DNA from: a virus
Virus record (IMG/VR): IMGVR_UViG_3300031991_000112
Length of the DNA stretch: 64,000 nucleotides
Direction: 5' to 3' (one strand)
The notes under the pieces were generated by a model. The model saw nothing but the letters and a program-made list of their open reading frames with translations, was not told the origin of the DNA and searched no databases. Both the position numbers and the translations under genes were made by a program. This document shows, in pieces, positions 11,118-56,819 of the stretch (within the stretch, counting starts at the first letter, position 1; each line of letters starts with the position of its first letter).

Positions 11118-11193
11118 GCGAGTATTTATGCGTTCAAGATTCCAATTTGCCACACTACAATACAATAGAGATCATCCAACATAAGGGGGAACT

Positions 11194-11982
11194 ATGTTCA
11201 GAACATTCTGTACTCTGTTTGTAGCTCTGTTTCTCGGTATCTCCGTACAAGCTGAGGAAACTTCTCAGCAAGTCAGAGGCGGTCTTCGCATCGGCGACTA
11301 CTCTGTATCAATCGGACATCAAGAATACAAAGAATATCGTGACCAGCGTGGTTATATCGTTCGTGGAAATGTATGGACAGCCAATGAAGCTGATAGCCGT
11401 GGCTATGTCCGCATGGATCACATGCAGCGATATGAAGTACGCCTTGGTTCGTCTTACTATGGCGAATCTGATGCAAAAATTGAAATTGATGGCAAGGAGA
11501 TTGGTGTTTTTAGAGTCCACTCTAATTCAGCAATCGTCATCGAACGCAGCATCAAGGACAAAGGACGTTTGACGTTCTTGACAAATGGCACTAGAGAATA
11601 CTTCGATGCAGGTCTGGATCGTGTTCCAGCTAACCAAAGAGGTTTGATCAAGGTCACGTTCTATCCAGAAAGACTTAGACATCGTGTTACAGAAAAGACA
11701 GAAGTGCCACACGAAACCACAGAAGGTAAGATTGCAACTTTCGGTTCGAAAGATTTAAGATCAGGCGGCACTGGTCTTACAGGTCGCAGCGACCAAGAAT
11801 TTCGTGACGCTAATGAAATCACAAGAGACTACAGCAACAGCGTTACCATCTATCTTCGTTTGGTTGAAGAAGAACGATTCCGTGCCTCGGAATCAGAGGT
11901 CAGACCACTTGAGGATACCAGAAATTATGGTAGAACCAGTGTGCCTAGGAACAACCCTGTTCCACCACCAGTAGAACGATAA
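11194..11982 (+). CDS. Secreted hypothetical protein
   Basis: Signal peptide (VALFLGISVQA-EE); GGGGGAA RBS; followed by a terminator. Confidence 0.75.
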   Translation: MFRTFCTLFVALFLGISVQAEETSQQVRGGLRIGDYSVSIGHQEYKEYRDQRGYIVRGNVWTANEADSRGYVRMDHMQRYEVRLGSSYYGESDAKIEIDGKEIGVFRVHSNSAIVIERSIKDKGRLTFLTNGTREYFDAGLDRVPANQRGLIKVTFYPERLRHRVTEKTEVPHETTEGKIATFGSKDLRSGGTGLTGRSDQEFRDANEITRDYSNSVTIYLRLVEEERFRASESEVRPLEDTRNYGRTSVPRNNPVPPPVER

Positions 11983-14536: not shown

Positions 14537-14572
14537 AGTAACCTCCAAATTATCTATCCATATCAAGAAACG

Positions 14573-26639: not shown

Positions 26640-26710
26640 CTCAGTACACCCCTCTTATGTGGATAAGTGTTGTATCTGGGAACACTTTGTTCCCGTACAA
26701 TATCTATCCA

Positions 26711-33452: not shown

Positions 33453-34445
33453 ATGAACGAGAGACTTGTAGCACTTTTGGCGGCGTTGTTCACGGTTCTT
33501 TTGATCGTGTTGGTTTTTGCTTCTAAACCCAAACAACATCAGCCACAAGATCAACCGCCGCCCATCGTTTCGCCTGATGTTCAACCAAACAACCCAGAGC
33601 CAACTGAGCCGCCAAAACCAGAAGAACCTTCAACACCAGAACCTAAATTCGAAAAGCACCCAGCCCAAAGGAACATTACAAATCTTGGAAAGGTACTTTC
33701 GGATATCGAGAGTCACATGCCTGCCGGTCACATCTATCAAGACAGTGATAAAATCACTTGGGGGCATGAAACAACTCACGGTATCAACTCCAATTTGAGA
33801 ATGGAGTTTAGCCGAAGAACCACCGCATACGACAACAATCCAAACAGGATGATTCGTGGTCAGATCGAAAACACAGAACTATTGGGTGAAATGATTGAAG
33901 ACATACATGGACACCCGGTTTTCAAATCCTATGCTCGTATCAATGGATTTTATGTTCTGGAAGATCGTGCGGTTATTATTGACGAACCCAACACAACCAT
34001 TACCGCAGCGGCAAACTTGGTTCCAAAGTCACTCAGAGGCGGTGTTTACAATCTCTACATGGTTCAACAGGCAAGTTCTTGGAACGACACCCCACTTTAT
34101 GTGTTTGATGAGTGGACGGCTTACGGTAATGGGGCTGCTGTTCGATTAGACTTAGGAATCAAAGAAAGAGCCGAAACAGTAACATTCATGTTGGAGTTCA
34201 ACGTCTATGCTATTTGCGTTGGTCAAGCCAGCAAAACAACCGACGAACAGTTCAAAAATTATCTAAAATGGAACATCGCTCGGTCCATGAAATTGTATGC
34301 AGATTCAAAAGAAAAACTCGGCAACGCTGAGTCCCATGATTCCTATTTAGAAACCATGAGAACTGCAACAGATGCCGAGTCATTCCGAGCATTCGCCAGA
34401 AGTTATTTAGGTGCGGACTGGACGAAGCACATTATGGGATTCTAA
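33453..34445 (+). CDS. Membrane-anchored putative zinc metallopeptidase
   Basis: N-terminal TM, Pro-rich linker, HETTH (HExxH) and downstream DEWTAY. Confidence 0.55.
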   Translation: MNERLVALLAALFTVLLIVLVFASKPKQHQPQDQPPPIVSPDVQPNNPEPTEPPKPEEPSTPEPKFEKHPAQRNITNLGKVLSDIESHMPAGHIYQDSDKITWGHETTHGINSNLRMEFSRRTTAYDNNPNRMIRGQIENTELLGEMIEDIHGHPVFKSYARINGFYVLEDRAVIIDEPNTTITAAANLVPKSLRGGVYNLYMVQQASSWNDTPLYVFDEWTAYGNGAAVRLDLGIKERAETVTFMLEFNVYAICVGQASKTTDEQFKNYLKWNIARSMKLYADSKEKLGNAESHDSYLETMRTATDAESFRAFARSYLGADWTKHIMGF

Positions 34446-34897
34446 GAAAAGAAACCCATGTTTACTGCTTCATTCATGATGAGACGGTAAACAAATCTGT
34501 TTGGGGCATACTTTTGGAAAAAGTACATATCGTCCCCAAGAAAGACCTTTGACAATGCTGCTGCAATGCCCGGTGAACGAGACCAACCCGCCTCGCAGTG
34601 TACCAGCAATAGGTCTACTTTTCCTTGAACTTCCAAGTAGAAGTCCAAAATTTGTTTCGCCATCTCGTTGTTGAAGAACGGGGTTCCTCGTTCATCGGTC
34701 ATTTGACCTTCGTAAGCTTTTTGAAGCTCTTGCATGGTCATATCCAAATCAGCAAAGTTCATCTGTAAAAGATGAGATGGCTGTTGGAACACAAACTCTG
34801 GCCAATCTCCGTGTTTTGTGACGACACTGATGCAAGCCCAAGGCTCAGATGGTTTGTAGATCGAAGCCATTGCTTTCGACCGAACTTCGATGATCAT
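34442..34897 (-). CDS. Protein-tyrosine/dual-specificity phosphatase-like protein
   Basis: VHCEAGWSRS (CX5R) motif; AAGGA RBS before MIIEV. Confidence 0.8.
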   Translation of the reverse strand: MIIEVRSKAMASIYKPSEPWACISVVTKHGDWPEFVFQQPSHLLQMNFADLDMTMQELQKAYEGQMTDERGTPFFNNEMAKQILDFYLEVQGKVDLLLVHCEAGWSRSPGIAAALSKVFLGDDMYFFQKYAPNRFVYRLIMNEAVNMGFFS

Positions 34898-34955
34898 TGT
34901 CGTCCTTTCACAAAGAGGTAGAATTTTACACGGCTGATTGTACGAACTTTGTGAC

Positions 34956-34996
34956 AAAAAGAAAGGGAACCACTTTGACTACGCAGAGTGGTTCCC
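34956..34996 (-). terminator. Intrinsic terminator closing the candidate ncRNA
   Basis: GGGAACCACT/AGTGGTTCCC stem followed by TTTCTTTTT on the minus strand. Confidence 0.75.
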
Positions 34997-35145
34997 CCGT
35001 GCTTTCACACTGTCGTTTGGACCCGTCTAATCCATCACTCACGAAGAATGATCTGAATCCTGTACTGACCGGTGTCCGCCACTGTTCTCGATAAAGCATC
35101 CGTACAGACAGCCTTAACGTTCTGCTCAGTGGTAGAAGACGGACA
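34997..35145 (-). ncRNA. Candidate structured (pseudoknotted) ncRNA or leader
   Basis: No ORF on this strand beyond MSVFYH; several complementary segments; TAGATA upstream and terminator downstream. Confidence 0.45.
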
Positions 35146-35161
35146 TTCTATCTACGGTTCA

Positions 35162-35935
35162 TTACAGATAACTTATAGCCAGTTCTCGATAGCGATCTAA
35201 ATAATCGAACCGCTTCAAGTATTCTCTTTGCGTCAAATACGCAAAATGGATTACTACCGAATCCCCACAAACAAAGTTTTTCTTGCCATACAAAGCCGGT
35301 CCTATCTCCGATATCCAGTGTTCTTCGTTCGGTGCAACAACTCCACCAAACTTTGCGAACTCAGAACCGAACCAACAAAACGAGTTGATATTAAACCCCT
35401 CGATTGTAGCAAAAGAAAACCCTTTCAGATTGTCCCAATCTTTCAAGGACAAACAGTATTCATGTAGTTTCGCCACATGCTCTAGGTCTTTGTAATAATC
35501 GTTGGTCTGTAGAACTGCCCGAATTGGACTGTAAGACAACATGTTCATTTTGTTGTTGACGATATGTGGGTAAACAACAAAATAATCAGGGTGTTTGATC
35601 CTAGCACGTAACAAATTTTGTACTGCATCTGGGGCGATGAAACAAATGTCGTCGTCAAACCGAATATAGATCGTGTCTTCTTCAATACAAGCTGGGAAGA
35701 AGGTATAAATCGTGCCCATCGCTTTTGGGGTGGTACAGCACTCAATGAACTTGAAGAAAGGGTTGCTTGCACAAACCGACTTCATGTAGTTAATATCAGA
35801 CTCGACGGTCGTGTTGACCCAAAAATGATGTTCATCAATGATGTGACTATTTCTCAACAAGTATTGGTTGAGAATTTCCAGATGTTCCTTGCGTCCAGCA
35901 GGAGTGACAGAAACTACTCGGTAACCTTCAAACAT
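35162..35935 (-). CDS. Glycosyltransferase (GT-A fold)
   Basis: VVSVTPAGR N-terminus and YIRFDDDICF DxD motif; TAATG coupling. Confidence 0.7.
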   Translation of the reverse strand: MFEGYRVVSVTPAGRKEHLEILNQYLLRNSHIIDEHHFWVNTTVESDINYMKSVCASNPFFKFIECCTTPKAMGTIYTFFPACIEEDTIYIRFDDDICFIAPDAVQNLLRARIKHPDYFVVYPHIVNNKMNMLSYSPIRAVLQTNDYYKDLEHVAKLHEYCLSLKDWDNLKGFSFATIEGFNINSFCWFGSEFAKFGGVVAPNEEHWISEIGPALYGKKNFVCGDSVVIHFAYLTQREYLKRFDYLDRYRELAISYL

Positions 35936-36309
35936 TACAAAATGAAACTCGATTTGATGGTTCCGATCAAATAAGATGTCACAGAGAAGAACATCTTTTG
36001 ACTTTGCCAAGGACGATGGAGATTGATGTACTTCATCATTGGCAGAACCCAACATTCACGCAAAGTTGCATTCTTGTATATCCTCAGTTCGCCTTGATGA
36101 TCAGAAATGATGCCGGGAGTGAGCATGGTTCTGATAGCAGATTCGATGTTCGAATCGTAATTGCATTTCATGATGAGAACTTGTTGGTTTTGGTCAAAGA
36201 CCACGTTATCCAAATAGAACTCATTGAACACAATCTTGTTTGTAGAACCCCTCGTGACTTCGATTGAATAGTCAAGGGATCGTTTCCGTTTATTCAACCA
36301 ATAGTTCAT
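35935..36309 (-). CDS. Hypothetical protein
   Basis: Coupled to neighbours. Confidence 0.6.
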   Translation of the reverse strand: MNYWLNKRKRSLDYSIEVTRGSTNKIVFNEFYLDNVVFDQNQQVLIMKCNYDSNIESAIRTMLTPGIISDHQGELRIYKNATLRECWVLPMMKYINLHRPWQSQKMFFSVTSYLIGTIKSSFIL

Positions 36310-39223: not shown

Positions 39224-39309
39224 ATATCTCTTATCCTTTCAATTTCCCTGTATCTACGTCTTATCAAAACAGGGCTTGCGTATTAAGCAATTTCTTGTGA
39301 TTCAGAGAT

Positions 39310-41359: not shown

Positions 41360-42039
41360 TCGAGGAACGCCTCAATTCTTTCAAACATGTTTCTCATCTC
41401 CCAATAAGGAACACATAGTAATGGAATCTTACATTCGAGGCAATAGTCCCGTTTGATCTTGTCGCTATCTTGAGTTCTTTGCAGCCTAGCGTTTCCGCCC
41501 CAACCTTTGGTTGTTTCGTAATGATGTTTTCCTTGAAATTCAATCAGACGTATGTTCGGAAGAAAAACTGCGAAGTCGAAAGGCAGCGGTTTTGTTCTTT
41601 TACAATCCTTGAACTTGTATTCTCGTTCAAACTTATAACCATTTTCTGCAAGCCAAGTATCAATAAGTTCGTTTGCGTAAGAACAAATACAACCGCATGA
41701 CTTCGTTTTGGCTCGCTTGAGGTTATCGAATGTAGTTGTAGTTGTTTTGCCACAATCACATAAACATCGGAGTACCTGATGCCCTCGATCATTCGTTCCA
41801 AGTGATTCTTGAACAACAAGCTTATGGAATCGTTGTCCCGTCAAATCTTCCGTTCGCTTGCAACCACAATTCAAACTTCCACCTTTGAAAAGGTTGTCTA
41901 CCCGAACCTCCGCAATGTTTCCACAAGTACAAGTGCATTCAACTCTCCTGTGTCTTTTGTCCTTCTGATTGATTTCAACATTTGTAACGATCCATTCGCC
42001 AAACTGCAATCCCAGAACTTGTTGTCTTTGTCTAGCCAT
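41356..42039 (-). CDS. Free-standing homing-type endonuclease (Cys-rich repeats plus PD-(D/E)XK/Vsr-like C-terminus)
   Basis: Repeated LTGQRFxKL...CxCxCG...SCGC units; LPFDF...LIEFQGKHHY; 4-nt overlap with polA. Confidence 0.75.
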   Translation of the reverse strand: MARQRQQVLGLQFGEWIVTNVEINQKDKRHRRVECTCTCGNIAEVRVDNLFKGGSLNCGCKRTEDLTGQRFHKLVVQESLGTNDRGHQVLRCLCDCGKTTTTTFDNLKRAKTKSCGCICSYANELIDTWLAENGYKFEREYKFKDCKRTKPLPFDFAVFLPNIRLIEFQGKHHYETTKGWGGNARLQRTQDSDKIKRDYCLECKIPLLCVPYWEMRNMFERIEAFLE

Positions 42040-42064
42040 GTGCTACCTCCTTTGAGGTATCTAT

Positions 42065-46717: not shown

Positions 46718-46745
46718 TTTACAAAGTTCGTAAAATTCGTATCCT
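46718..46745 (+). promoter_or_regulatory. Conserved promoter, class TTTACA-N12-TTCG-TAnnnT
   Basis: TTTACA-aagttcgtaaaa-TTCG-TATCCT. Confidence 0.45.
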
Positions 46746-46780
46746 ATACGGGTCGTTGAAAGAGATTTTTCTCTCTCGGT

Positions 46781-46808
46781 TTAACAAAACCGAACAACTC
46801 CGTAGAAT
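46781..46808 (+). promoter_or_regulatory. Conserved promoter, same class
   Basis: TTAACA-N12-TCCG-TAGAAT. Confidence 0.6.
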
Positions 46809-46819
46809 AGGAACCGAAC

Positions 46820-47005
46820 ATGTCTGTGTTGATTTGGATTGCTTTGCTCGTCGGTATTTTCGTTTGGCCAGAAGCCACACTATGCGTGGTATTGTTTCAA
46901 GCGGGCTACCCGATCCTCGCAGTTCTTGCAATTTTCGCCACGTTCTTCAACGGTCGAGACATCGTGAAGAACAAAATCAAGGAAGCTAAAGAAGTGCAAT
47001 CATGA
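46820..47005 (+). CDS. Small two-TM membrane protein
   Basis: Two hydrophobic segments; AGGAA RBS. Confidence 0.6.
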   Translation: MSVLIWIALLVGIFVWPEATLCVVLFQAGYPILAVLAIFATFFNGRDIVKNKIKEAKEVQS

Positions 47006-47538
47006 ACGAACGCCGTCTGGTAATCATGCGTGGTCTGCCGTGGTGTGGGAAGTCCTACACTGCGAAGCAAATCGCTGGGGATGTAGGAGTGGTCTATGCG
47101 ACCGACGACTACTTCTACACCGAAGTGGACCCGCACGCACCAGACGTTTACAACTTCGTTCCTCGCTTCTTGGCTTATGCCCATAAGTGGAACTTTATCC
47201 GTGCTACCTTGCAGATCAACATTGGTCATCCATTGGTGATCATCGACAACACCAACACTACTGCTTCGGAACCGAAGAAGTATGTCGAGTACGCTTTATG
47301 TCAAGACTACGAAGTTGAGATTCAAGAGCCTACCAGTGACCGTTGGCAGGAGATTCGTGAATTGCTCCAACGCAAGAAGGAGTGTAAGAAGGAACTCCGT
47401 GAATGGGCTGCGAAGTTGGCTGAAGGTAGCAAGGAAACTCACAACGTACCACAATTCGCCATCGAAAAGATGATGTGGCGTTGGGAGAATGACCTGACTG
47501 TGGACCAGATTGTCGCTGCACCCGACTACGGTGCTTGA
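47002..47538 (+). CDS. P-loop kinase (AAA_33 / NEDD4-binding-protein-2-like)
   Basis: IMRGLPWCGKS, ATDDYF, AHKWN, IIDNTNT, HNVP. Confidence 0.8.
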   Translation: MNERRLVIMRGLPWCGKSYTAKQIAGDVGVVYATDDYFYTEVDPHAPDVYNFVPRFLAYAHKWNFIRATLQINIGHPLVIIDNTNTTASEPKKYVEYALCQDYEVEIQEPTSDRWQEIRELLQRKKECKKELREWAAKLAEGSKETHNVPQFAIEKMMWRWENDLTVDQIVAAPDYGA

Positions 47539-47567
47539 AACTGAACCCTGAATAGGAGAACTGAACC

Positions 47568-49397
47568 ATGAAGAGAATTCTGATGTCCTGTCTCGCACTT
47601 TTTCTGTGCGTAGCCACTGTTCAAGCCGAAGAGCCTTTTTCAAAGCTCGTTGGTGATGTGCAGGTTGCGAATGTCCAAGAACCCGGTGGCGTCACTCGTG
47701 TGCCGTTCATCACTTGGGGTGGAGACGTTGCAACCTTCCACGCCAACGGTGGACTCAAAACCAAGCCCGGTTCCATTTTTGCAAATCAAGGTTTGAACCT
47801 TGAACTGACTCCCGGTGACGACTTCGTACAGCAGGTACGGGATTACATGACCGGTAAAACCCCGTACCTGCGTGGTACGATGCGTATGATTGGTCAAGCC
47901 TCTGAGGTTCTGAATTCAAACCCTCAGACCAAGCCGGTTGTTGTTTTCCAGATGACTTGGAGTGCTGGCGACCATATCGTCGGTATTGCATCCATCAAAG
48001 AACTCGGTGACCTCAAAGGAAAACGAGTTGCACTACAGCGTGGTGGACCTCACTTGGGTCTTCTTGACGACGCTTTGCGTGCCGCTGGCATGACTTGGAA
48101 AGACATCACTGTTGTGTGGTGTAAAGACCTGACTGCCACCGATGAGTCTCCTGCCGCCAAGATTCGTGCGGGTCTTGCCGATGCTGCTTGCGTGATCACG
48201 CCCGATATGATCGGTTTGACCGGTGGTCTCGATAGCAAAGGTTCTGGTGCTGAAGGAACTCTGAAAGACGCTCGTGTAGTGGTTTCAACCGCTCAGATGT
48301 CTCGCTCGATTGCTGACGTTTATGTCTGTCGTCGTGATTACTTCAACGCCAACAAAGAGAAGGTCCAGAAGTTTTTCGCTGGCTATCTCAAGGGGTGTGA
48401 AGAAATTATCGCCGAACAGAAGAAGTACAACGACGGCAAGGGTTCGTCCGCTGTTTACGTCAACGCCCTGAAGTTGGCTCAGTCGATCTACGGCGAAGAA
48501 GTCATCCCAACATGGGAAGTCGATGCACACGGTTTGGTTCTCGACTGTACCTATGTCCGTTTGCCCGGTAACGTCAGCTTCTTCACTGACGCTGGTAATT
48601 TGAACGGGTTTGAGAAGAAAATGGCTAACGCCCTTGACCTTGCTACAAGTTTGGGATTGGCGTCGAACCGTTTCGGTTTTGAAGCTCCCGGCTTTGACTA
48701 TCGTCAAGTAGCAACTCTGGCTGGCGTCGAATACGTTGCACCAGTTGCTTCGACTGGTCGTATTCAGGGTGAGATTGAAAAGTTCACCGAAGAGTTGGAT
48801 GACAACACGATCTTGACTTTTGTCATCGAATTCAAGCCCAACCAGAACACTTTCTCGGTTGACACTTACGGTGCCGAGTTCAAGCGAGTTATCGAGAATG
48901 CCAGCACGTTCGGTAACGCCGTGTTTGCTGTTCGTGGTCACGCTGATCCGACTGCCACTCTTCGCAGCTTCTTGAAGGCTGGAATGCAGAAGGGTATCAT
49001 CACCCGAACCGGTGAGAGCGAAGCCAATGGTGGAAAGGGTTACACCTACTACCTGCGTGGTAAAGAGCTTGACTTGAATCAGACTGACGCCTTGGTGCGG
49101 GAAATCCAGCAAGGGAACTTCACTGGTGCTTCGGAAAATCCGAATCAAGTCATGCAGGCAGCACTCAATTTGTCCCTGACACGTTCGGAAGCTATTAAGG
49201 ATGCGATTCTTGAGTTTGCAAAGGCTCAAGGGATCAACCTTGACCCTTCGCAAATCCAACCTCAAGGCGTCGGCATCCGTGAACCGATTGTCGCCAAGCC
49301 TACCAGCATGGAAGAAGCACAGCAGAATATGCGTGTCGAGTTCCGTCTGATCAAGGTTCCTGCCGAAGCTCTCAACGCTTCCGACTTCGATTTCTAA
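47568..49397 (+). CDS. Secreted NMT1/THI5-type substrate-binding domain fused to a C-terminal OmpA-like domain
   Basis: Signal peptide; VPFITWGGD, SAGDHIV, GKRVALQRGGPH; OmpA-like VRGHAD...LSLTRSEAIK...NMRVEF with internal insertion. Confidence 0.8.
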   Translation: MKRILMSCLALFLCVATVQAEEPFSKLVGDVQVANVQEPGGVTRVPFITWGGDVATFHANGGLKTKPGSIFANQGLNLELTPGDDFVQQVRDYMTGKTPYLRGTMRMIGQASEVLNSNPQTKPVVVFQMTWSAGDHIVGIASIKELGDLKGKRVALQRGGPHLGLLDDALRAAGMTWKDITVVWCKDLTATDESPAAKIRAGLADAACVITPDMIGLTGGLDSKGSGAEGTLKDARVVVSTAQMSRSIADVYVCRRDYFNANKEKVQKFFAGYLKGCEEIIAEQKKYNDGKGSSAVYVNALKLAQSIYGEEVIPTWEVDAHGLVLDCTYVRLPGNVSFFTDAGNLNGFEKKMANALDLATSLGLASNRFGFEAPGFDYRQVATLAGVEYVAPVASTGRIQGEIEKFTEELDDNTILTFVIEFKPNQNTFSVDTYGAEFKRVIENASTFGNAVFAVRGHADPTATLRSFLKAGMQKGIITRTGESEANGGKGYTYYLRGKELDLNQTDALVREIQQGNFTGASENPNQVMQAALNLSLTRSEAIKDAILEFAKAQGINLDPSQIQPQGVGIREPIVAKPTSMEEAQQNMRVEFRLIKVPAEALNASDFDF

Positions 49398-49410
49398 AGC
49401 GTTTGACAAT

Positions 49411-49441
49411 AAAGACCCTGCTGATTGTCAGCAGGGTCTTT
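49411..49441 (+). terminator. Hairpin/terminator
   Basis: AAAGACCCTGCTGA-ttg-TCAGCAGGGTCTTT. Confidence 0.75.
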
Positions 49442-49484
49442 GTCAAGCTTTCCAAATACAATCCATGTGTAGGAGAATTGAACC

Positions 49485-50390
49485 ATGAAGAGATTCCTTG
49501 CTGCTCTCGTTCTACTGCTTGTTGCTTCACAAGCGAATGCGGCTGAGAGCCGAAACAACATCGTGATCTTGCTTGATACTTCAGGCTCGATGAGTGAACA
49601 GATGAGAACTGTTCGACAGAGTAAGTGGGATGCGGCTAAGTCTGCTCTCATCAATGTCGTCGATCAGATTCCAGAAAACACAAACATTGGACTCCTGCTT
49701 TTCAATCCAGAAGATTGGCGTTACGATCTCGGTCCTGTCAACAAAGCCGATCTCACTCGTGCGATTCAGTCGGCACAAATCACTGATCGTTCTGGCACGC
49801 CTCTTGGCACTTACATGAAAAAGGGTGTTGATCGGCTTTTGCAGGAACGTGAAAAGTCTTTTGGTTACGGCACCTATAAGTTGTTGATCGTTACGGATGG
49901 CGATCCAACCAATGAGCCTTCTGGTCTTGTGGACAAATTCTTGCCGGATATTCTTGCTCGTGGTATCACGGTCGAATGTATCGGCGTGAGTATGGCGAGC
50001 CACAGTGTTCTCAAGGACAAAGTACACAAGTACATGTCTGCTGATGATCCAACTTCGCTGACACAGCAGATTCAGAGTACTGTGCTTGCTGAAGTTTCTT
50101 TGGAAGATGGAGTCGGCGGTTTTGAAGAGTTGAGCGGCATTCCTACGCCGACTGCCGAGGCGATCATCAGTACGTTGTCCACGTCGGGTAATCATCCGAT
50201 TGGCGAGAATCCTCCAAAGGTGATTGTGGATCAAGAGACTGGACAAACGCAAGTCGTACCGGGTGGACCAATTAACCCAACTCAGGCAGATAGTGGTATG
50301 GGCATCATCGGCGTCGTATTGATTGTTGTGGTCGTGGTTGTCCTTGCCTTTCTGTTTTGTGGTTGTGTGTTAAGCGGCAACCGTTATTGA
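49485..50390 (+). CDS. Exported vWA domain protein with C-terminal TM anchor
   Basis: Signal peptide; ILLDTSGSM MIDAS, GTPL, IVTDGDP; C-terminal hydrophobic helix. Confidence 0.88.
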   Translation: MKRFLAALVLLLVASQANAAESRNNIVILLDTSGSMSEQMRTVRQSKWDAAKSALINVVDQIPENTNIGLLLFNPEDWRYDLGPVNKADLTRAIQSAQITDRSGTPLGTYMKKGVDRLLQEREKSFGYGTYKLLIVTDGDPTNEPSGLVDKFLPDILARGITVECIGVSMASHSVLKDKVHKYMSADDPTSLTQQIQSTVLAEVSLEDGVGGFEELSGIPTPTAEAIISTLSTSGNHPIGENPPKVIVDQETGQTQVVPGGPINPTQADSGMGIIGVVLIVVVVVVLAFLFCGCVLSGNRY

Positions 50391-50420
50391 TCGTCCAGAT
50401 ACCGTCGAAGGAGGATTCCA

Positions 50421-51986
50421 ATGGGAGATAAAAGCATGTCAAAAGTCAAGATGCTCTTTGTGGGCATCGTTTGGCTAGGAATTCTTGGTGTTGGGGTTTT
50501 GGGGTATCGATGGATTTTCGTGCCTCAACAAGAGAAAGCCGCCGAACAAGCCGCCGAACAAGCGGCTGTTCAACAAAAAGAAGAACTTCTCAACCACACC
50601 AGTGCGAATGCACGGTACACAGAACAAGTACAGATCAACCTCGACTCTTTCAGTGGTTACTCTGTACTTCGTTCGGAAGAGTTCCGCAATGAACTCGGTT
50701 CATATAAGATTGGCTTGACCCTCAAAGACGATGGTGCCGACTACACACAGCGTCTCAAGGATATCCAAGACGGAAAGTCACAGTTCGCCGTCTTTACGGT
50801 AGACGCTTTGATCAAAGCGTCTCAGGAACTTGGCGACCTTCCGGGGACAATCATTTTTGTTGTTGATGAATCTCGTGGTGCTGATGCAGCAATCGGTGTG
50901 GAACGCATCATCAGTAACATCGATGCATTGAACGACCCGGAAACAAAATTTGTAGTCGTCCCCGACTCGCCTAATGAGACGTTGGCACGAGTCATTATGT
51001 CTTACTTTTCTCTCGACCGCCTTGGCAATGATCCGTTTATTCGAGTCAATTCAGCCAAGGAGTTGTATGAAATGTATAGGCGGCATAAGCCAACTGAGAA
51101 GCGTATTTTCGTGACTTGGGAACCTTATGTTTCAAAGATGGCAGAGAACCCCGACTACAAGATTTTGGTTGATTCAAGCAAGTTCCGTGGGTATATCGTG
51201 GATGTTATGGTGGTTAGCCGTGACTACCTTGCCAAGAATCCACGCCAAGTTCGCAATGTTACTGAAGCCTACTTTAGGTCGATGTTTCATCATCAAAACA
51301 ATCTGCCGCAGCTTTTGACAGATGATTCGATTCGGATTGGTGAACCCTTAAAGCCTGAATTGGCTGAGTCCTTGGCAGAAAAGATTCGCTGGCGGAACAC
51401 TCGTGAGAACTACGCTCATTTCGGTTTGGCTCAAGGAACTGGTCTTCAACATATCGAAGACGTGATCATCAACATCACACGAGTTCTGCGTCAGACCGGT
51501 GGTATTCCTGATGATCCAACCGGTGGTCGCCCGAACCAACTGTACTACGATCAGATTCTCAAAGACATGATGGCTGCGAACTTCCATCCCGGCAATGTCG
51601 GTGATCAAGAAAAGATCAGGGACGATACGCAGCTTGCGGCTCTTTCAGATGAGGATTGGAAACGTTTGGAACCAGTAGGAACTTTGCAGGTTCCAAATCT
51701 TGTATTCGCTCGTGGAACTTCTCGTTTGACCGAGAGTAGCAAGCATACGCTTGATGAACTGGTGCAAAAGTTGAAAGATGCTCCGCAGTTTTATCTTCTA
51801 GTTACCGGCAATGCTGGTCTTGAAGGTAACCTTGACGCCAATACAGCTTTGGCAATGTCGAGAGCGGAAACCGCAAAAGAGTATCTGATCAGTGCAGGAA
51901 TTCCAGCCCAACGCATTCGTGCGGTAGGTGGTGAACCGAGCGGTCAAACGATTGTTACATTCGTAGTCGGTCAGTTACCTTACTGA
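50421..51986 (+). CDS. Membrane-anchored substrate-binding domain fused to an OmpA-like domain
   Basis: N-terminal TM; DSFSGY, DESRGADA, VTWEPY, YIVDVMVV; OmpA-like AMSRAETAKEYL...GIPAQRI. Confidence 0.8.
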   Translation: MGDKSMSKVKMLFVGIVWLGILGVGVLGYRWIFVPQQEKAAEQAAEQAAVQQKEELLNHTSANARYTEQVQINLDSFSGYSVLRSEEFRNELGSYKIGLTLKDDGADYTQRLKDIQDGKSQFAVFTVDALIKASQELGDLPGTIIFVVDESRGADAAIGVERIISNIDALNDPETKFVVVPDSPNETLARVIMSYFSLDRLGNDPFIRVNSAKELYEMYRRHKPTEKRIFVTWEPYVSKMAENPDYKILVDSSKFRGYIVDVMVVSRDYLAKNPRQVRNVTEAYFRSMFHHQNNLPQLLTDDSIRIGEPLKPELAESLAEKIRWRNTRENYAHFGLAQGTGLQHIEDVIINITRVLRQTGGIPDDPTGGRPNQLYYDQILKDMMAANFHPGNVGDQEKIRDDTQLAALSDEDWKRLEPVGTLQVPNLVFARGTSRLTESSKHTLDELVQKLKDAPQFYLLVTGNAGLEGNLDANTALAMSRAETAKEYLISAGIPAQRIRAVGGEPSGQTIVTFVVGQLPY

Positions 51987-51992
51987 TCGTCC

Positions 51993-52028
51993 AAAATGGA
52001 CCGGGAGGCAGGCTCCCGGTCCATTTTT
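51993..52028 (+). terminator. Intrinsic terminator
   Basis: AAAATGGACCGGGAG-gcagg-CTCCCGGTCCATTTT. Confidence 0.85.
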
Positions 52029-52041
52029 ATTGGAGTTTCTC

Positions 52042-52794
52042 ATGAGAATACTTGTCACAAGTGGAGGCACCAAAGTTCCTATTGATAGCGTTCGTGATAT
52101 TACGAATATGAGCAAAGGAACCTTTGGAACCAAAATTGCGAAACTGTTCATGACCGCTGGTCATGAAGTTACGTTCTTTTATGGCAAAGACACCAAAACA
52201 CCACTCAAATTTGAGTTGGATTCGTTCCAACAGCCAGATTACGAACGCTCGATGAGTTTGTTCGCTGGGCATTTGATGGATGTTGCCCTGTATAAAGATC
52301 GTTACTCCGAGAGAGTCTTCCGTAACTTTGATGATTACGAAGATGGTTTTTGGAAATTGATGAACGCTTACAATTACGATATCGTTGTCCTTGCGGCGGC
52401 GGTAAGTGATTACGGAGTTGTTCCAATTTCTGGAAAAGCTCGTAGTAGCGAGGAATTGAAGCTTGAACTCTTTCCACTGCCAAAAATTATTTCAAAGGTC
52501 AAGCAGAAGTTTCCAGACACTTGCTTGGTTGGGTTCAAGTTGTTGGTTGGCAGCACTGATGAGGAATTGATTGCTGCTGTCAAAGCCAGCATGGAAAATA
52601 ACGGTTGTGATTTGGTTGTTGGGAATGATCTGCGTGATATCAAGCAAGGTGACCATCGGTTGTTGCTTGGTTTCAAAGATGGCGGCGAGGTTCTACCTTT
52701 TAGTACCAAACCCGACGACAGTGAATTTTTGGCATCAATTGTTGTTTCTTATGCCATCGAACAAAGGGTTTTACAAATCCAGAAAAGTTCGTAG
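52042..52794 (+). CDS. coaB: Phosphopantothenate-cysteine ligase (stand-alone CoaB)
   Basis: ILVTSGGTKVPIDSVRDITNMSKGTFG, LAAAVSDY, VGFKL, LVVGNDL. Confidence 0.88.
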   Translation: MRILVTSGGTKVPIDSVRDITNMSKGTFGTKIAKLFMTAGHEVTFFYGKDTKTPLKFELDSFQQPDYERSMSLFAGHLMDVALYKDRYSERVFRNFDDYEDGFWKLMNAYNYDIVVLAAAVSDYGVVPISGKARSSEELKLELFPLPKIISKVKQKFPDTCLVGFKLLVGSTDEELIAAVKASMENNGCDLVVGNDLRDIKQGDHRLLLGFKDGGEVLPFSTKPDDSEFLASIVVSYAIEQRVLQIQKSS

Positions 52795-52797
52795 AAT
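52770..52797 (+). promoter_or_regulatory. Conserved promoter upstream of coaC-M23
   Basis: TTTACA-aatccagaaaag-TTCG-TAGAAT. Confidence 0.65.
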
Positions 52798-52803
52798 ACC
52801 GTC

Positions 52804-53871
52804 ATGAACATCTTACTTGGAATAACCGGAAGTGTGGCAGCAAAGCTGGCACCTAAGTTGCAAACCGCTTTACAAAAGTTGGGTGATGTAACTTGTGTTG
52901 CTACGCAGTCTTCGCTCAACTTCTTGTCTGAAGAATTTGAGTGTCTTACAGACGCCGACGAGTGGGGTGTTTGGAAACAAGAAGAGAGTGTTTTGCATAT
53001 CGATCTTCGCCGTAAAGCATCTATTTTGGTGTTGGCTCCATTGGATGCTAATACTTTAGCAAAGATGGCGAATGGTTTATGTGACAATCTGCTTACTTCC
53101 GTCATTCGTGCGTGGGACACCAATCGTCCTATTGTGATTGCCCCGGCGATGAATACGTTCATGTGGGAACATCCTTTGACCGCCGAGCATATTCGGCGTA
53201 TTAGTGAATTGCCTTGTGTGCATGTGGTTCAGCCACAAACCAAAACTCTTGTTTGTGGTGATACGGGTGTCGGGGCGATGTGTGACATCGAACAGATTGT
53301 TTCCAAGGTTGAAGCTTTAACCAAATGGAGCTTCCCGTTGCTCGAACGTCGTGGTGTTCCGAAGGGGAATCATCCCGGTGCGTTTGGATACAAACGAAAA
53401 TATGATCGGCACACTGGTGTTGATCTTTATTGCGACGTTAGCAAGTACAATGCGGTCTATGCTGTTGAGTCTGGTGTTGTGGTTCAGATTGAACATTTCA
53501 CTGGATCGAAAGATAACTCACCTTGGTGGAATGATACCAAGTGTGTAATGATTGAGGGTGCGAGTGGTGTCGTCAATTATGGAGAGATTGAACCTGACGC
53601 CATTTATGTTGGTGCCCAAGTCAAGCGTGGTATGCAGGTTGGACGTGTAGTGCCGGTTTTGCCGGTTTTGCCTGAAGGTAAAGAGCGACCAGATTTACCC
53701 GGTCATTCACGTTCTATGTTGCATGTTGAGTTGTATGAACACGGGGTTCGCCGTGCCTCTGATAAATGGGACCATGATGGACCAACCCCACCGGGGCTTA
53801 AAGACCCGACGCCATATTTGTTGAATTGTAAAGATGGTGTTCAGGAGGTTCTTGAATGCCCGGTTGGATGA
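52804..53871 (+). CDS. coaC: Phosphopantothenoylcysteine decarboxylase (CoaC flavoprotein) fused to an M23 peptidase-like domain
   Basis: ILLGITGSVAA, HIDL, APLDANTLAKMANGLCDNLLT, PAMNTFMW, LVCGDTG; then RHTGVDLY...AVESGVV...MLHVE. Confidence 0.88.
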   Translation: MNILLGITGSVAAKLAPKLQTALQKLGDVTCVATQSSLNFLSEEFECLTDADEWGVWKQEESVLHIDLRRKASILVLAPLDANTLAKMANGLCDNLLTSVIRAWDTNRPIVIAPAMNTFMWEHPLTAEHIRRISELPCVHVVQPQTKTLVCGDTGVGAMCDIEQIVSKVEALTKWSFPLLERRGVPKGNHPGAFGYKRKYDRHTGVDLYCDVSKYNAVYAVESGVVVQIEHFTGSKDNSPWWNDTKCVMIEGASGVVNYGEIEPDAIYVGAQVKRGMQVGRVVPVLPVLPEGKERPDLPGHSRSMLHVELYEHGVRRASDKWDHDGPTPPGLKDPTPYLLNCKDGVQEVLECPVG

Positions 53872-54683
53872 CTTTACAAGAAACTCTTGACTCCACAGGA
53901 GAATCTATACCAACTTTCAGGAGAACGCACGTGAAACCCGAAAACAATGTAGTCGATAAGATTCGGCAAAAAATCTTACTCGACTTGTTCATCACGCCTT
54001 ATTCTTTGTTCCCATTCATTGGCGGTTGCAGTCTGTTGATGCTTGCTTGGGCGACCAAGGTTTATGGGATTTTTGCATTCGGTGGTTTCATCGGTTGTGT
54101 GCTTGGAATTGGCGTGGCTCTGACCAACTTCTTGTTCAACATCGACAAGTTTTCAGAGAAAGCTGTACAACAGGTCAAAGCGGCGATGATGAAGCAACGA
54201 GAGGGACAGTTAAATGAACTGGCTCGAAAGTTGACACTTACTCGTGAACGCAAGGATGATGACTGTCTGGAAGCGTTGCGTAGTTTGTACAAGGACTTTT
54301 TGCGTGATCTTGAAGACAATCGAATTGACGTGACGCCAGAGATCATCACGCAAGTTGACCATATCTTTGAAGAGTGCATTACTGCTTTGGACCACTCTTG
54401 CGACTTATACCACACGGCAGGAAACATGCCGAAGGGTCAAAAACAATCTGTCTTGGATAAACGGAATGCTGTTCTTGGTGAAGTTGAAGAGAGCGTCAAT
54501 TTGCTCTCAGACCTGATGGTTCAGGTTCGGACCATGAACACGCAAGAAAAGAAAATTCGTCTTGCAAAGTTGCGTGGTGAACTTCGTACACAATTGGAAG
54601 CCGCCGAAGCTACCAATGAGCGTATGTTGAACATCGAACATGGCGGTGTGGACGAAGATTATTCCGAATATCTCAAAGAGTAG
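53868..54683 (+). CDS. Two-TM protein with cytoplasmic helical domain (XpaC-like architecture)
   Basis: Two N-terminal TM helices then coiled-coil; ATGA overlap; directly upstream of pspA. Confidence 0.6.
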   Translation: MTLQETLDSTGESIPTFRRTHVKPENNVVDKIRQKILLDLFITPYSLFPFIGGCSLLMLAWATKVYGIFAFGGFIGCVLGIGVALTNFLFNIDKFSEKAVQQVKAAMMKQREGQLNELARKLTLTRERKDDDCLEALRSLYKDFLRDLEDNRIDVTPEIITQVDHIFEECITALDHSCDLYHTAGNMPKGQKQSVLDKRNAVLGEVEESVNLLSDLMVQVRTMNTQEKKIRLAKLRGELRTQLEAAEATNERMLNIEHGGVDEDYSEYLKE

Positions 54684-54685
54684 GT

Positions 54686-54713
54686 TTTACAAATCAATTC
54701 GACTTCGTAGAAT
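54686..54713 (+). promoter_or_regulatory. Conserved promoter upstream of pspA
   Basis: TTTACA-aatcaattcgac-TTCG-TAGAAT. Confidence 0.65.
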
Positions 54714-54760
54714 TGGTTAAGTCGTGGCAATAACACTTTTGGTCAAGAGGAGAACAGAAC

Positions 54761-55555
54761 ATGATCCGTTATTTGCGAGCACTTTGGTACTTTTGTACCG
54801 GACGATTTTCTGCCGCTGCTGAAGCACTGGCAAGCAATGAGTATGTGATGGCGGCGACCTATGATGCTGCTATCGAAAAGTCGGGTAACCGATACCAAAC
54901 GGTTCGCAACGCTGTCGCCAAGTTGGTTGGCATCGAGCAAGAGAGGGTTGCGAAGATCAAGCTGTTGACCGAGAAGTTCGAGAAGCTCGAAAAGGTCAAA
55001 CAAGGTGCGGCTGGCAAGGCGAAAATTCTCGCCCAACAGCTTCAGGCACAAGGACAGACCATCGAGCAAATCAAGTCCAATCCTGAATATCTGAAGCACA
55101 TGGCTGCGTTCCAAAACGCTGCGACTTCGGCAAAAGATGCTGAGACTGAAATTCAGCAGATCGAAGCCGAGTTGGATAACCAGCGTAAGCAGATCGCTCA
55201 GTACAAGATTCAGCTTCAGAACATGCAGCGTTCTCAAAAAGACCTGCAAGAAGAGAAGAATGCTGCTATCGCTGATGTTGCAGTCGCCAAGGAAATGCAA
55301 GCGGTCAATGATGTCCTCAACGGTGTCGCCACCGACACGACGGACAAAGACCTTGATGCTGCACGCAAAGCTCGTCAGCACGCCAAAGCAAGTGCTCAGA
55401 TCACGGCTGAATTGGCTGGCAACGATGCTCAGCTTGCGGAAGACGAGTATCTTCACTTCGCCGCTGACAACGATGCGTCCAGCGAGTTTGACGCCCTGAT
55501 CGGTCTCACCGAAGAGCCGAGCGGCAACTTCGATCCTGCCAAGTTGCCCGAATAA
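54761..55555 (+). CDS. pspA: PspA/IM30 family coiled-coil protein
   Basis: Amphipathic N-terminal helix, long heptad coiled-coil, C-terminal ...SEFDALIG pattern; ~260 aa. Confidence 0.7.
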   Translation: MIRYLRALWYFCTGRFSAAAEALASNEYVMAATYDAAIEKSGNRYQTVRNAVAKLVGIEQERVAKIKLLTEKFEKLEKVKQGAAGKAKILAQQLQAQGQTIEQIKSNPEYLKHMAAFQNAATSAKDAETEIQQIEAELDNQRKQIAQYKIQLQNMQRSQKDLQEEKNAAIADVAVAKEMQAVNDVLNGVATDTTDKDLDAARKARQHAKASAQITAELAGNDAQLAEDEYLHFAADNDASSEFDALIGLTEEPSGNFDPAKLPE

Positions 55556-55566
55556 CCAAAATTGTA

Positions 55567-55604
55567 AAGATAGCCCGTTGCTCTCTTGTAGCGGGCTGTC
55601 TTTT
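55567..55604 (+). terminator. Intrinsic terminator
   Basis: AAGATAGCCCGTTGC/GTAGCGGGCTGTCTT stem (with G-U pairs) plus T-tract. Confidence 0.65.
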
Positions 55605-55649
55605 CTTGTAGAGTTTGACATTCCCTGTCCTGTGTTAAGGAGAAGAACC

Positions 55650-56729
55650 ATGAAGTGTCTGATGTCCCTGAGTTTGTGTCTTGCGTTGTTTGTCGGTTGT
55701 AGTTCCGATAAGCCGGGTGAGGATGGTGCTGTGAAGGCACCGGCTTCAACCCCTGTTTTCTCGCTCACTTGGAGTGAGTACCCGTCTTGGTCGGTCTTCG
55801 GTGTCGCCAATGAGTTGGGCATCCTGAACGGCGAAGAAGGTCAGATGTCTGAGTTGGAACAGAAGTACGGCGTCGATGTCGTGTTGAAGGAAGCTGACTA
55901 CGATACCTGTATCCAGTATTACGGCACCGGCACGGTCGATGCCGCTTGCTTGACGAACATGGATACTTTGTCGCCTTCCCTCGGACGCCCGGCTCGTGGA
56001 ATTTTGCCGACTTCGACTTCTGCTGGTGCTGACGCCGTTCTGTCGGTGGAAGGTGCCACTCTAGTCGATCTGAAGGGCAAGAAGGTTTACGGTCTCGACA
56101 AGTCCGTGTCTGAATACCTGTTTGTGCGAGCGATTGAAGAAGCGGGTCTGAATCCTGCTGATTTCGAGTTCGTCGGTATGGACCCGTTCGCCGCTTCTCA
56201 GGCTTTGCAGACTGACAGCCCGAACGTCAAGTCGATCTGTGTCTGGAATCCGTTCAAGATGTCCACGTTGGACAAGCGAGCCGAAGCCGTTCTGGTTGTT
56301 GACTCCAAGGTGATCCCCGGCGAAATCGTTGACATGGTTGTGGTCGGCGAAGACAGCATGGCAAAAGAAGGTTCTGCCGAGTTCTGTGCCTGTATCTGTG
56401 AAGCCTACTACAAAGTTTGTCAACTGCTGAACGATCCGGCTACTCGTGACAAGACGCTCGTCGCTCTCGGTGCCAAGTTTTCAGACTTGAACGCTGAACA
56501 GATGGCGGTTTGCACGACGGAGACTGCGTTCTACGATACGCCTGATAAGGGTATCGCCTTGTTTGACGGCACCAATACTGATGGTTCCAAGTTGACCGAC
56601 ACGATGGTGCGTGTTGTGAAGTTCTGCGTCGATAAGCAGATTTGCGACAGCGAACCAACCGTCACTTTTGGCGGCAAGACTGATGGTGAATTCAACTTCG
56701 ATTCATCCTTCATGAAACAAGTCAAGTAA
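55650..56729 (+). CDS. ABC transporter substrate-binding lipoprotein (NitT/TauT, putative urea-type)
   Basis: Lipobox LFVG-C; WSEYPSW, TNMDTL, TSAGADAV, GLDKSVSEY, VWNPF, IPGEIVDMVV. Confidence 0.85.
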   Translation: MKCLMSLSLCLALFVGCSSDKPGEDGAVKAPASTPVFSLTWSEYPSWSVFGVANELGILNGEEGQMSELEQKYGVDVVLKEADYDTCIQYYGTGTVDAACLTNMDTLSPSLGRPARGILPTSTSAGADAVLSVEGATLVDLKGKKVYGLDKSVSEYLFVRAIEEAGLNPADFEFVGMDPFAASQALQTDSPNVKSICVWNPFKMSTLDKRAEAVLVVDSKVIPGEIVDMVVVGEDSMAKEGSAEFCACICEAYYKVCQLLNDPATRDKTLVALGAKFSDLNAEQMAVCTTETAFYDTPDKGIALFDGTNTDGSKLTDTMVRVVKFCVDKQICDSEPTVTFGGKTDGEFNFDSSFMKQVK

Positions 56730-56753
56730 TCCCGAAAAGGTTGCTGTGTCTTG

Positions 56754-56789
56754 AAAACCTCGTTGGAATCACTTCCAACGAGGTTTTTT
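56754..56789 (+). terminator. Intrinsic terminator
   Basis: AAAACCTCGTTGGAA-tcac-TTCCAACGAGGTTTTTT. Confidence 0.85.
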
Positions 56790-56791
56790 CT

Positions 56792-56819
56792 TTTATAAAC
56801 TTCCCATTCTTCGTATAAT
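56792..56819 (+). promoter_or_regulatory. Conserved promoter, same class
   Basis: TTTATA-aacttcccattc-TTCG-TATAAT. Confidence 0.65.

Follow-up and report, generated by a model that had tools for sequence, protein, structure and literature searches.

Comparative analysis supports a conserved pseudoknotted RNA gene in a clade of uncultured phages

We analysed a 64-kb stretch of viral DNA (hereafter the window), which is part of a 153,990-bp metagenomic contig and comes from IMG/VR record IMGVR_UViG_3300031991_000112. A first-pass annotation, made from the letters of the window, had flagged a candidate pseudoknotted non-coding RNA within a 265-bp gap on the minus strand. Comparison with homologous loci from related phages confirms, at the level of sequence evolution, that the element is an evolutionarily conserved structured RNA gene of the minus strand; the predicted transcript is about 189 nt long and consists of a 146-nt structured core followed by a terminator hairpin and U-tract (Table 1). 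Our preferred reading, to which we would assign a probability of roughly 0.55, is a stand-alone gene for a trans-acting small structured RNA that founds a new family.

Compensatory changes support a two-domain fold clamped by a pseudoknot

Homologues were collected by using the protein of the downstream phosphatase-like gene as query and fetching the contigs, and an exact-pattern scan of Joint Genome Institute (JGI) metagenomes added others. The RNA was found in loci L002-L004, L010-L013, and L021-L023, giving nine variants: the window, L003, L004, L022/L023, L010, L011, L013, and the 5'-truncated L002 and L021. The L004 RNA is identical in L005-L009 and L012, and L013 is the same contig as L014 and L019. 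A structure model was derived with RNAalifold and refined manually; all coordinates given below for the RNA are those of the window, minus strand.

The candidate had been made to depend on covariation among homologues, and covariation was found. Across the nine variants, the five core helices (pseudoknot included) are 97.4% paired, with compensatory double changes at 16 of 39 pairs, a result matched by 0 of 500 shuffles; pairing fell to 32-42% in a control in which the partner columns were slid. When the six full-length homologues were scored, 94.1% of cells were paired and double changes were seen at 22 of 54 pairs, again with 0 of 500 shuffles matching and with 36-45% paired after the partners were slid by 1-3 columns. 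G.U pairs account for 26 of 311 cells; because these would be A.C on the opposite strand, the structure belongs to the minus-strand transcript. The single-sequence folding energy was undistinguished (z = -1.66; 11 of 200 shuffles fold equally well), and since z is only -1.66, the comparison of folding energy with shuffled sequences is uninformative either way.

In the fold, P1-P2 and P3-P4-P5 each form a hairpin domain, with a single nucleotide linking the two, and a 6-bp pseudoknot between the P2 loop and the strand intervening between P3 and P4 clamps both domains. Within the first domain, three of six P1 pairs covary (CCGCUG/CAGCGG, CCAUUG/CAAUGG, and CUAUUG/CAAUAG), as do four of eight pairs in P2. 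The pseudoknot is 100% paired with three of six pairs covarying, and it occurs in four versions: CUGUAC/GUACAG, CUGCAC/GUGCAG, CUAUAC/GUAUAG, and UUGCAC/GUGCAA. P3 is 92% paired; L004, L022, and L013 have U-A in place of C-G at two positions, and their substitutions in AGACGGGUCC are compensated by the GGAC-A-CCG strand. Both bases have changed in three of the five P4 pairs, and a fourth has gone from U.G to U-A; the loop-closing pair of P5 supplies the fifth double change of this helix block. The conserved joining segment J3/6, AACGACA, precedes the GNRA-capped hairpin P6. Readings of parts of the RNA as a K-turn, an 11-nt tetraloop receptor, or a tRNA-like acceptor with CCA were tried by eye and fail across homologues.

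Every motif listed by the first-pass annotation is present on the minus strand at the coordinates it reported, namely, TAGATA, CCACUG/CAGUGG, CUGUAC/GUACAG, CCGUCU/AGACGG (the latter strand at 35028-35023), the UUCG and GAAA hairpins, and the terminal hairpin with its U-tract. Its pseudoknot is upheld by the covariation described above. Its first helix, drawn as GUCCG plus CCACUG, is retained in part: CCACUG/CAGUGG is P1, and the GUCCG:CGGAC outer extension is 80% paired with 0 covarying pairs. The switch proposed between CCGUCU and AGACGG fares no better; even when extended to 8 bp, it is 83% paired, has 0 covarying pairs, and is broken in L013. The same changes in AGACGGGUCC that P3 accommodates in L004, L022, and L013 disrupt both of these helices. 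A transient alternative conformation of the 5' tail may exist, though it is not what evolution has preserved.

Table 1. Features of the RNA locus and its neighbours in the window
Feature	Coordinates	Strand	Remarks
Whole predicted RNA	34956..35144	minus	core plus terminator
TAGATA box, putative -10-type promoter element	35149..35154	minus	4-5 nt 5' of GUCCG
5' tail GUCCGUCUUCUA	35133..35144	minus	CCGUCUUC within it invariant, unpaired in the supported model
P1 5' strand CCACUG	35127..35132	minus	pairs with 35079-35084
J1/2 AGCAGAA, conserved purine-rich internal-loop strand	35120..35126	minus	GAGCAGA invariant
P2 5' strand CGUUAAGGC	35111..35119	minus	pairs with 35089-35097; U.U mismatch conserved
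Pseudoknot 5' strand CUGUAC, within the 13-nt P2 loop	35102..35107	minus	adjoining loop bases ACGGAUG invariant
P2 3' strand GCUUUAUCG	35089..35097	minus	
J2/1 (A/U)GAA, opposite J1/2	35085..35088	minus	GAACA invariant
P1 3' strand CAGUGG	35079..35084	minus	
P3 5' strand GGAC-A-CCG	35070..35077	minus	pairs with 35019-35025
Pseudoknot 3' strand GUACAG, between P3 and P4	35060..35065	minus	
P4 5' strand GAUUC	35055..35059	minus	pairs with 35029-35033
P5 hairpin AUCAUUC-UUCGU-GAGUGAU	35034..35052	minus	6 of 7 pairs invariant in nine variants; loop UUCGU or UUCGUC
P4 3' strand GGAUU	35029..35033	minus	
P3 3' strand CGG-GUCC	35019..35025	minus	
P6 hairpin GUGU-GAAA-GCAC, GNRA-capped	34999..35010	minus	GAGA or GCAA in homologues
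Intrinsic terminator	34956..34998	minus	11-bp G+C-rich stem, 14-nt loop, UUUCUUUUU tract
Putative separate sigma-70-type promoter of the phosphatase-like gene	34937..34964	minus	TTTCTT-N16-TACAAT, TTCG before the -10
Dual-specificity (Cys) phosphatase-like gene, 151 aa, downstream neighbour	34442..34897	minus	active-site motif HCEAGWSRSP
Glycosyltransferase-like gene, upstream neighbour	35162..36055	minus	phrog_4447

The RNA is non-coding and more strongly conserved than the adjoining genes

The phages share 66-96% of the nucleotides of the 146-nt core. Corresponding identities are 45-61% for the phosphatase-like gene and 60-77% for a conserved Ogg-like gene, and third codon positions of the flanking genes are 25-58% identical, that is, near saturation. 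The contrast is clearest between the window and L010, with identities of 95.9% for the RNA, 60% for the phosphatase DNA, and 37% for the third positions of the phosphatase gene. The homologues share no conserved reading frame: stops occur in all six frames in most of them, and 1-nt indels shift the frames. Because the RNA is conserved above genes that are near saturation and keeps no frame, its function is at the level of the nucleic acid, and the conservation reflects neither shared ancestry nor a hidden protein. The RNA is therefore non-coding and under purifying selection stronger than that on the adjoining protein genes; no other element of the neighbourhood is as strongly conserved, and synonymous sites in these phages are near saturation.

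A function at the DNA level (as an origin, a recombination site, or a protein-binding site) was weighed together with that of a small protein hidden in the sequence. The locus sits within a phage DNA replication and recombination module, among genes for UvsX-like, gp32-like single-stranded DNA-binding, DnaB-like helicase, and PolA-type polymerase proteins, which would suit a DNA element, as would the sequence-invariant stem of P5. Against it, compensatory changes keep the pairing, including many strand-specific G.U pairs, and a directional terminator closes the element. A hidden protein gene is ruled out by stop codons and frame-shifting indels in every frame, and overall we consider this pair of explanations very unlikely.

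The locus is probably an independent transcription unit

In all homologues, the conserved stretch has a sharp onset at GUCCG and extends as far as the U-tract. Upstream, five of six full-length homologues have the TAGATA box at a constant spacing, surrounded by variable bases; L013 has TACATAAAT in its place. A simple promoter scan returned no sigma-70 consensus promoter for the RNA. The 12 TAGATA sites in the 64 kb do not amount to over-representation overall, and they are concentrated just 5' of genes, on the coding strand. Taken on sequence and placement, TAGATA looks like a phage-specific -10-type promoter element.

The box also occurs 18-27 nt before start codons at 42058-42063, 39251-39256, 26701-26706, and 14551-14556 of the window (all minus strand) and at 3065-3070 of L014. 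Genes preceded by it include the DnaB-like gene and the gene at 42039, and the start codons have ribosome-binding sites. At 26640-26706 (minus strand), a perfect hairpin, GGGAACAAAGUGUUCCC, lies after the box within the 5' leader of the gene that comes next; this small stem-loop may have a regulatory or stabilising role.

Downstream, every homologue has an intrinsic terminator with an 11- to 14-bp G+C-rich stem and a U-tract. The sequence of the stem differs in each and its pairing is kept, with five pairs changed on both sides. The hairpin has a pair probability of 0.98-1.0 in seven of seven sequences, with no competing fold; the homologue sequences showed no conserved segment complementary to either of its strands. 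A simple terminator scan missed it in the window, the loop limit of the scan being 8 nt and the loop 14 nt. Of the promoter and terminator predicted by the first-pass annotation, then, the terminator is borne out by covariation, and the promoter stands as a conserved, promoter-like box with a presumed role.

The phosphatase-like gene appears usually to be transcribed from a promoter of its own. The arrangement TTTCTT-N16-TA(C/T)AAT lies 3' of the terminator in five variants (window, L003, L010, L002, and L021); its putative -35 element, TTTCTT, is the U-tract of the terminator, a layout kept in four relatives. L013 has, by inspection, a different plausible promoter between the terminator and the phosphatase gene. 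A recurrent promoter with a TTTACA-like -35, a 16-nt spacer, and T(T/C)CGTAnAAT was also noticed on the plus strand of the window at 46727, 46799, 52788, 54704, and 56810; the TTCGTAnAAT motifs span 46727-56819, and the TTCG-type extended -10 is common to them and the phosphatase-gene promoter.

The genomic contexts point the same way. L011 has no phosphatase gene after the RNA but an unrelated 264-aa gene in convergent orientation, which ends directly at the terminator; a look-up of the 264-aa protein for a longer contig found no record. Phosphatase homologues outside the RNA-carrying clade have 45-nt leaders and no RNA. Because the TAGATA box is conserved, the terminator is uncontested, the phosphatase gene usually has a separate putative promoter, the downstream gene of L011 is convergent, and the neighbours change between lineages, we read the locus as a stand-alone gene.

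The RNA is confined to one small clade of phages

The carriers are related large uncultured phages from marine, freshwater, and biofilm metagenomes, with Tara Oceans among the samples. Near-identical DNA is present in biofilm and cave sequencing runs, with smaller shares in drinking-water and freshwater runs. No RNA run was listed among those carrying the sequence, and contigs from four DNA runs covered none of the locus; these two outcomes say nothing about expression. A blastn search with the locus against cultured phages (INPHARED, 50,697 records) gave no match. Within IMG/VR, pattern and protein scans found a single carrier, the 68.6-kb contig IMGVR_UViG_3300014205_002439 (L014/G001); a loose structural pattern returned 26 stretches from the same database, which were this known contig and 25 matches that model R1 places as chance. 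Two scans of GTDB genome contigs yielded no copy and one chance match inside an open reading frame (ORF). The RNA family is thus rare and confined to one small phage clade, and it is present in one copy each in the window and in the 68.6-kb relative.

Model R1 scores 152-176 bits on full-length members. It also gives a second, weak match in the window (16 bits, E = 0.026; 11144-11285, minus strand, intergenic), which is probably noise. Because CheckV rates the 68.6-kb relative as only 12% complete, members of the clade are probably very large; the estimate suggests jumbo or mega phages. Three separate short contigs, L002, L021, and L009, all start at one identical base (at GAUG in the P2 loop). 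Most likely, this shared start is an assembly-graph break caused by co-occurring strains with an identical conserved 5' domain and marks no biological end.

Genes around the RNA

The 151-aa product of the phosphatase-like gene matches Pfam DSPc at E = 4e-4, below the curated cut-off, belongs to phrog_5614, and gives weak matches to DUSP5/10/16 in PDB; its HCEAGWSRSP signature is conserved. In the lineages of the window and L010, and in no others, the upstream glycosyltransferase-like gene has been inserted between a 124-aa gene and the RNA; in L003 (836-1210) it is absent, and the 124-aa gene lies directly 5' of the RNA. Its sole IMG/VR relative is in a 379-kb jumbo-phage contig (L001) from which the RNA is absent. 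Some lineages only have an ORF of 54-68 aa with two CxxC pairs (zinc-ribbon-like) between the RNA terminator and the phosphatase gene (L004, 3840-4004; L022, 2340-2504; L002, 190-396). ARAGORN found no tRNA or tmRNA gene in the entire 64-kb window.

A stand-alone RNA weighed against a leader of the phosphatase gene

Several observations weigh against the reading of the locus as a stand-alone gene for a trans-acting RNA. The assignment of TAGATA as its promoter rests on conservation and on analogy with the other TAGATA sites. Covariation events are limited in number and in part inherited, as all nine variants come from one clade. In most members, the tail shows complementarity to either strand of P3 (80-83% paired, compared with 23-63% after sliding). 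A search of the window and its relatives for complements of the tail and the P5 loop gave no recurrent site near start codons, and no partner protein, ligand, or target has been identified for a role in trans. Finally, the phosphatase gene lies downstream on the same strand in seven of eight contexts, and in L004 and L022 no promoter is visible before the ORF that comes after the terminator; in these two, the ribosome-binding site and start of the small ORF lie within 11 nt of the U-tract, so transcription of the downstream genes must pass through the RNA.

The last two points are also what recommends a cis-acting leader of the phosphatase operon, whose fold would decide passage through the terminator, either as a riboswitch-like or protein-dependent attenuator or as a processive antiterminator of the put type. 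Such a leader would account for a complex, aptamer-like fold with invariant junction bases, and the complementarities GUCC...GGAC...GUCC and CCGUCU...AGACGG would permit the alternative pairings that a switch needs; the two hairpin domains one nucleotide apart may also recall, by analogy, the put RNAs of phage HK022. The comparative data go against it. No conserved segment competes with either strand of a terminator that is predicted to form almost invariably, the alternative helices lack covariation and one of them, P0, is lost in L013, and the promoter 3' of the terminator is conserved in five variants. Neither the missing same-strand gene of L011 nor the short, RNA-free leaders of phosphatase relatives outside the clade is expected of such a leader. 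We therefore hold a cis-acting role to be improbable, though worth keeping in view. The first-pass annotation had left the choice between a stand-alone RNA and a switchable attenuator upstream of the phosphatase-like gene; the former fits better, and the supposed link to that gene is not supported, given the putative promoter that usually lies 3' of the terminator and the convergent gene in L011.

Possible modes of action

As a stand-alone gene, the locus would be transcribed from a few bases after TAGATA to the terminator, and the product would be a discrete RNA of about 190 nt, independent of the downstream phosphatase gene; transcription attenuation of a neighbour gene forms no part of this proposal. 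We would expect the RNA to act in trans as a compact fold recognised by a protein or a small ligand, although this step is speculative. The likely interaction surfaces would be the invariant CCGUCUUC tail, the P5 hairpin, and the segments GAGCAGA, ACGGAUG, and GAACA. Because the two domains are clamped together, a GNRA hairpin is present, and unpaired bases are invariant, the RNA may well be recognised through its three-dimensional shape, whether by a protein partner, as a ligand sensor, or as a catalyst. A plain antisense regulator would seem to fit less well than an RNA recognised in this way; judged by eye, pairing of the pyrimidine-rich tail with purine-rich ribosome-binding sites of the downstream genes is possible in some members but inconsistent across them.

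A bolder and rather doubtful proposal is that the RNA represents a new sensing or catalytic class of huge phages, either a ligand- or protein-gated trans-acting RNA or a new self-cleaving ribozyme. It is prompted by the pseudoknot, the GNRA hairpin, and the many invariant junction bases, together with the complementarity of the tail to both P3 strands. In its gated version, AGACGGGUCC would swap between P3 and the invariant 5' tail, exposing or hiding the pyrimidine-rich CCGUCUUC.

A new class of self-cleaving or otherwise catalytic RNA, taken by itself, strikes us as quite improbable. Phages often carry small ribozymes, and the compact pseudoknot, the many invariant unpaired nucleotides, and the GNRA-capped peripheral hairpin might suit one, features that are equally typical of aptamers. 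The sequence matches no ribozyme in Rfam 15, including hammerhead, twister, pistol, hatchet, HDV-like, and glmS, its helix topology differs from the nested double pseudoknots of HDV and glmS, and the sequence data show no mark of a cleavage site.

The preferred reading, a trans-acting RNA from its own gene, concerns a family that is rare, strongly constrained, and experimentally tractable. At about 150 nt, the core is of a size suited to in-line probing, cleavage assays, ligand screens, crystallography, or cryo-electron microscopy, and the clean promoter-RNA-terminator layout makes expression easy. As a well-supported new family, it joins a short list of phage-encoded structured RNAs without an assigned role. 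If it turned out to be a sensor or a ribozyme, or to form the RNA component of a phage ribonucleoprotein, large phages would be shown to use RNA in a new way during infection; should it simply be a small regulatory RNA, it would still be a useful marker of an uncultured phage clade.

Comparison with known RNAs

The window and five homologues were searched against Rfam 15 (4,227 models) at gathering thresholds and at E <= 10, and no family matched, ribozymes and riboswitches included; what remained was scattered miRNA and snoRNA noise (E 0.7-7), with a different family for each sequence. A full-text literature search for the sequence returned no paper. Because Rfam, cultured phages, and the literature all gave no match, we regard the RNA as a new family.

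The glmS ribozyme (RF00234), to which the first-pass annotation had likened the element, is of similar size, is pseudoknotted, and also has a GNRA-capped peripheral hairpin. A diverged glmS ribozyme is nonetheless extremely unlikely. The resemblance in sequence comes down to the order of the short motifs AGC-AGAAC, GGAUG, and GGCGGA, the last of which is not conserved (GGAGGA, GGUGGA, and GAGGGA in other members). The glmS model gave no hit in the Rfam search, the helix topology is different, the invariant core residues are absent, and the gene that follows encodes a phosphatase-like protein and not glmS.

Transcription-terminating riboswitches share with the window RNA a conserved complex fold, an intrinsic terminator after it, and, in most members, a gene downstream on the same strand. 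The window RNA differs from them in having no overlap between terminator and antiterminator, a separate downstream promoter, a member (L011) without the downstream gene, and no match to a known aptamer. The putL and putR RNAs of phage HK022 consist of two stem-loop domains one nucleotide apart, located just after the promoter and before a terminator. These RNAs are about 70 nt long and are not known to contain a pseudoknot. The context of L011, without downstream genes, argues against an antiterminator role.

The rnaC and rnaD RNAs of phage T4 (species 1 and 2 RNAs) are likewise small, stable, phage-encoded RNAs of about 120-140 nt with no assigned function. They lie in, and are processed from, a tRNA cluster, whereas the window RNA has its own terminator in a window without a tRNA gene; homology was rejected, as model R1 scores at most 4.3 bits across the T4 region with filters off.

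Some orphan structured RNAs of phages and marine metagenomes are free-standing genes (Weinberg et al. 2010, PMC2864571). Relative to manA (RF01745), wcaG, GOLLD, and ROOL, the window RNA shows no match in sequence or structure; GOLLD and ROOL are much larger, and all four are widespread, whereas the window RNA belongs to a single small clade. What it has in common with them is that each is phage-borne, backed by covariation, pseudoknotted, rich in highly conserved unpaired nucleotides, and without an assigned function.

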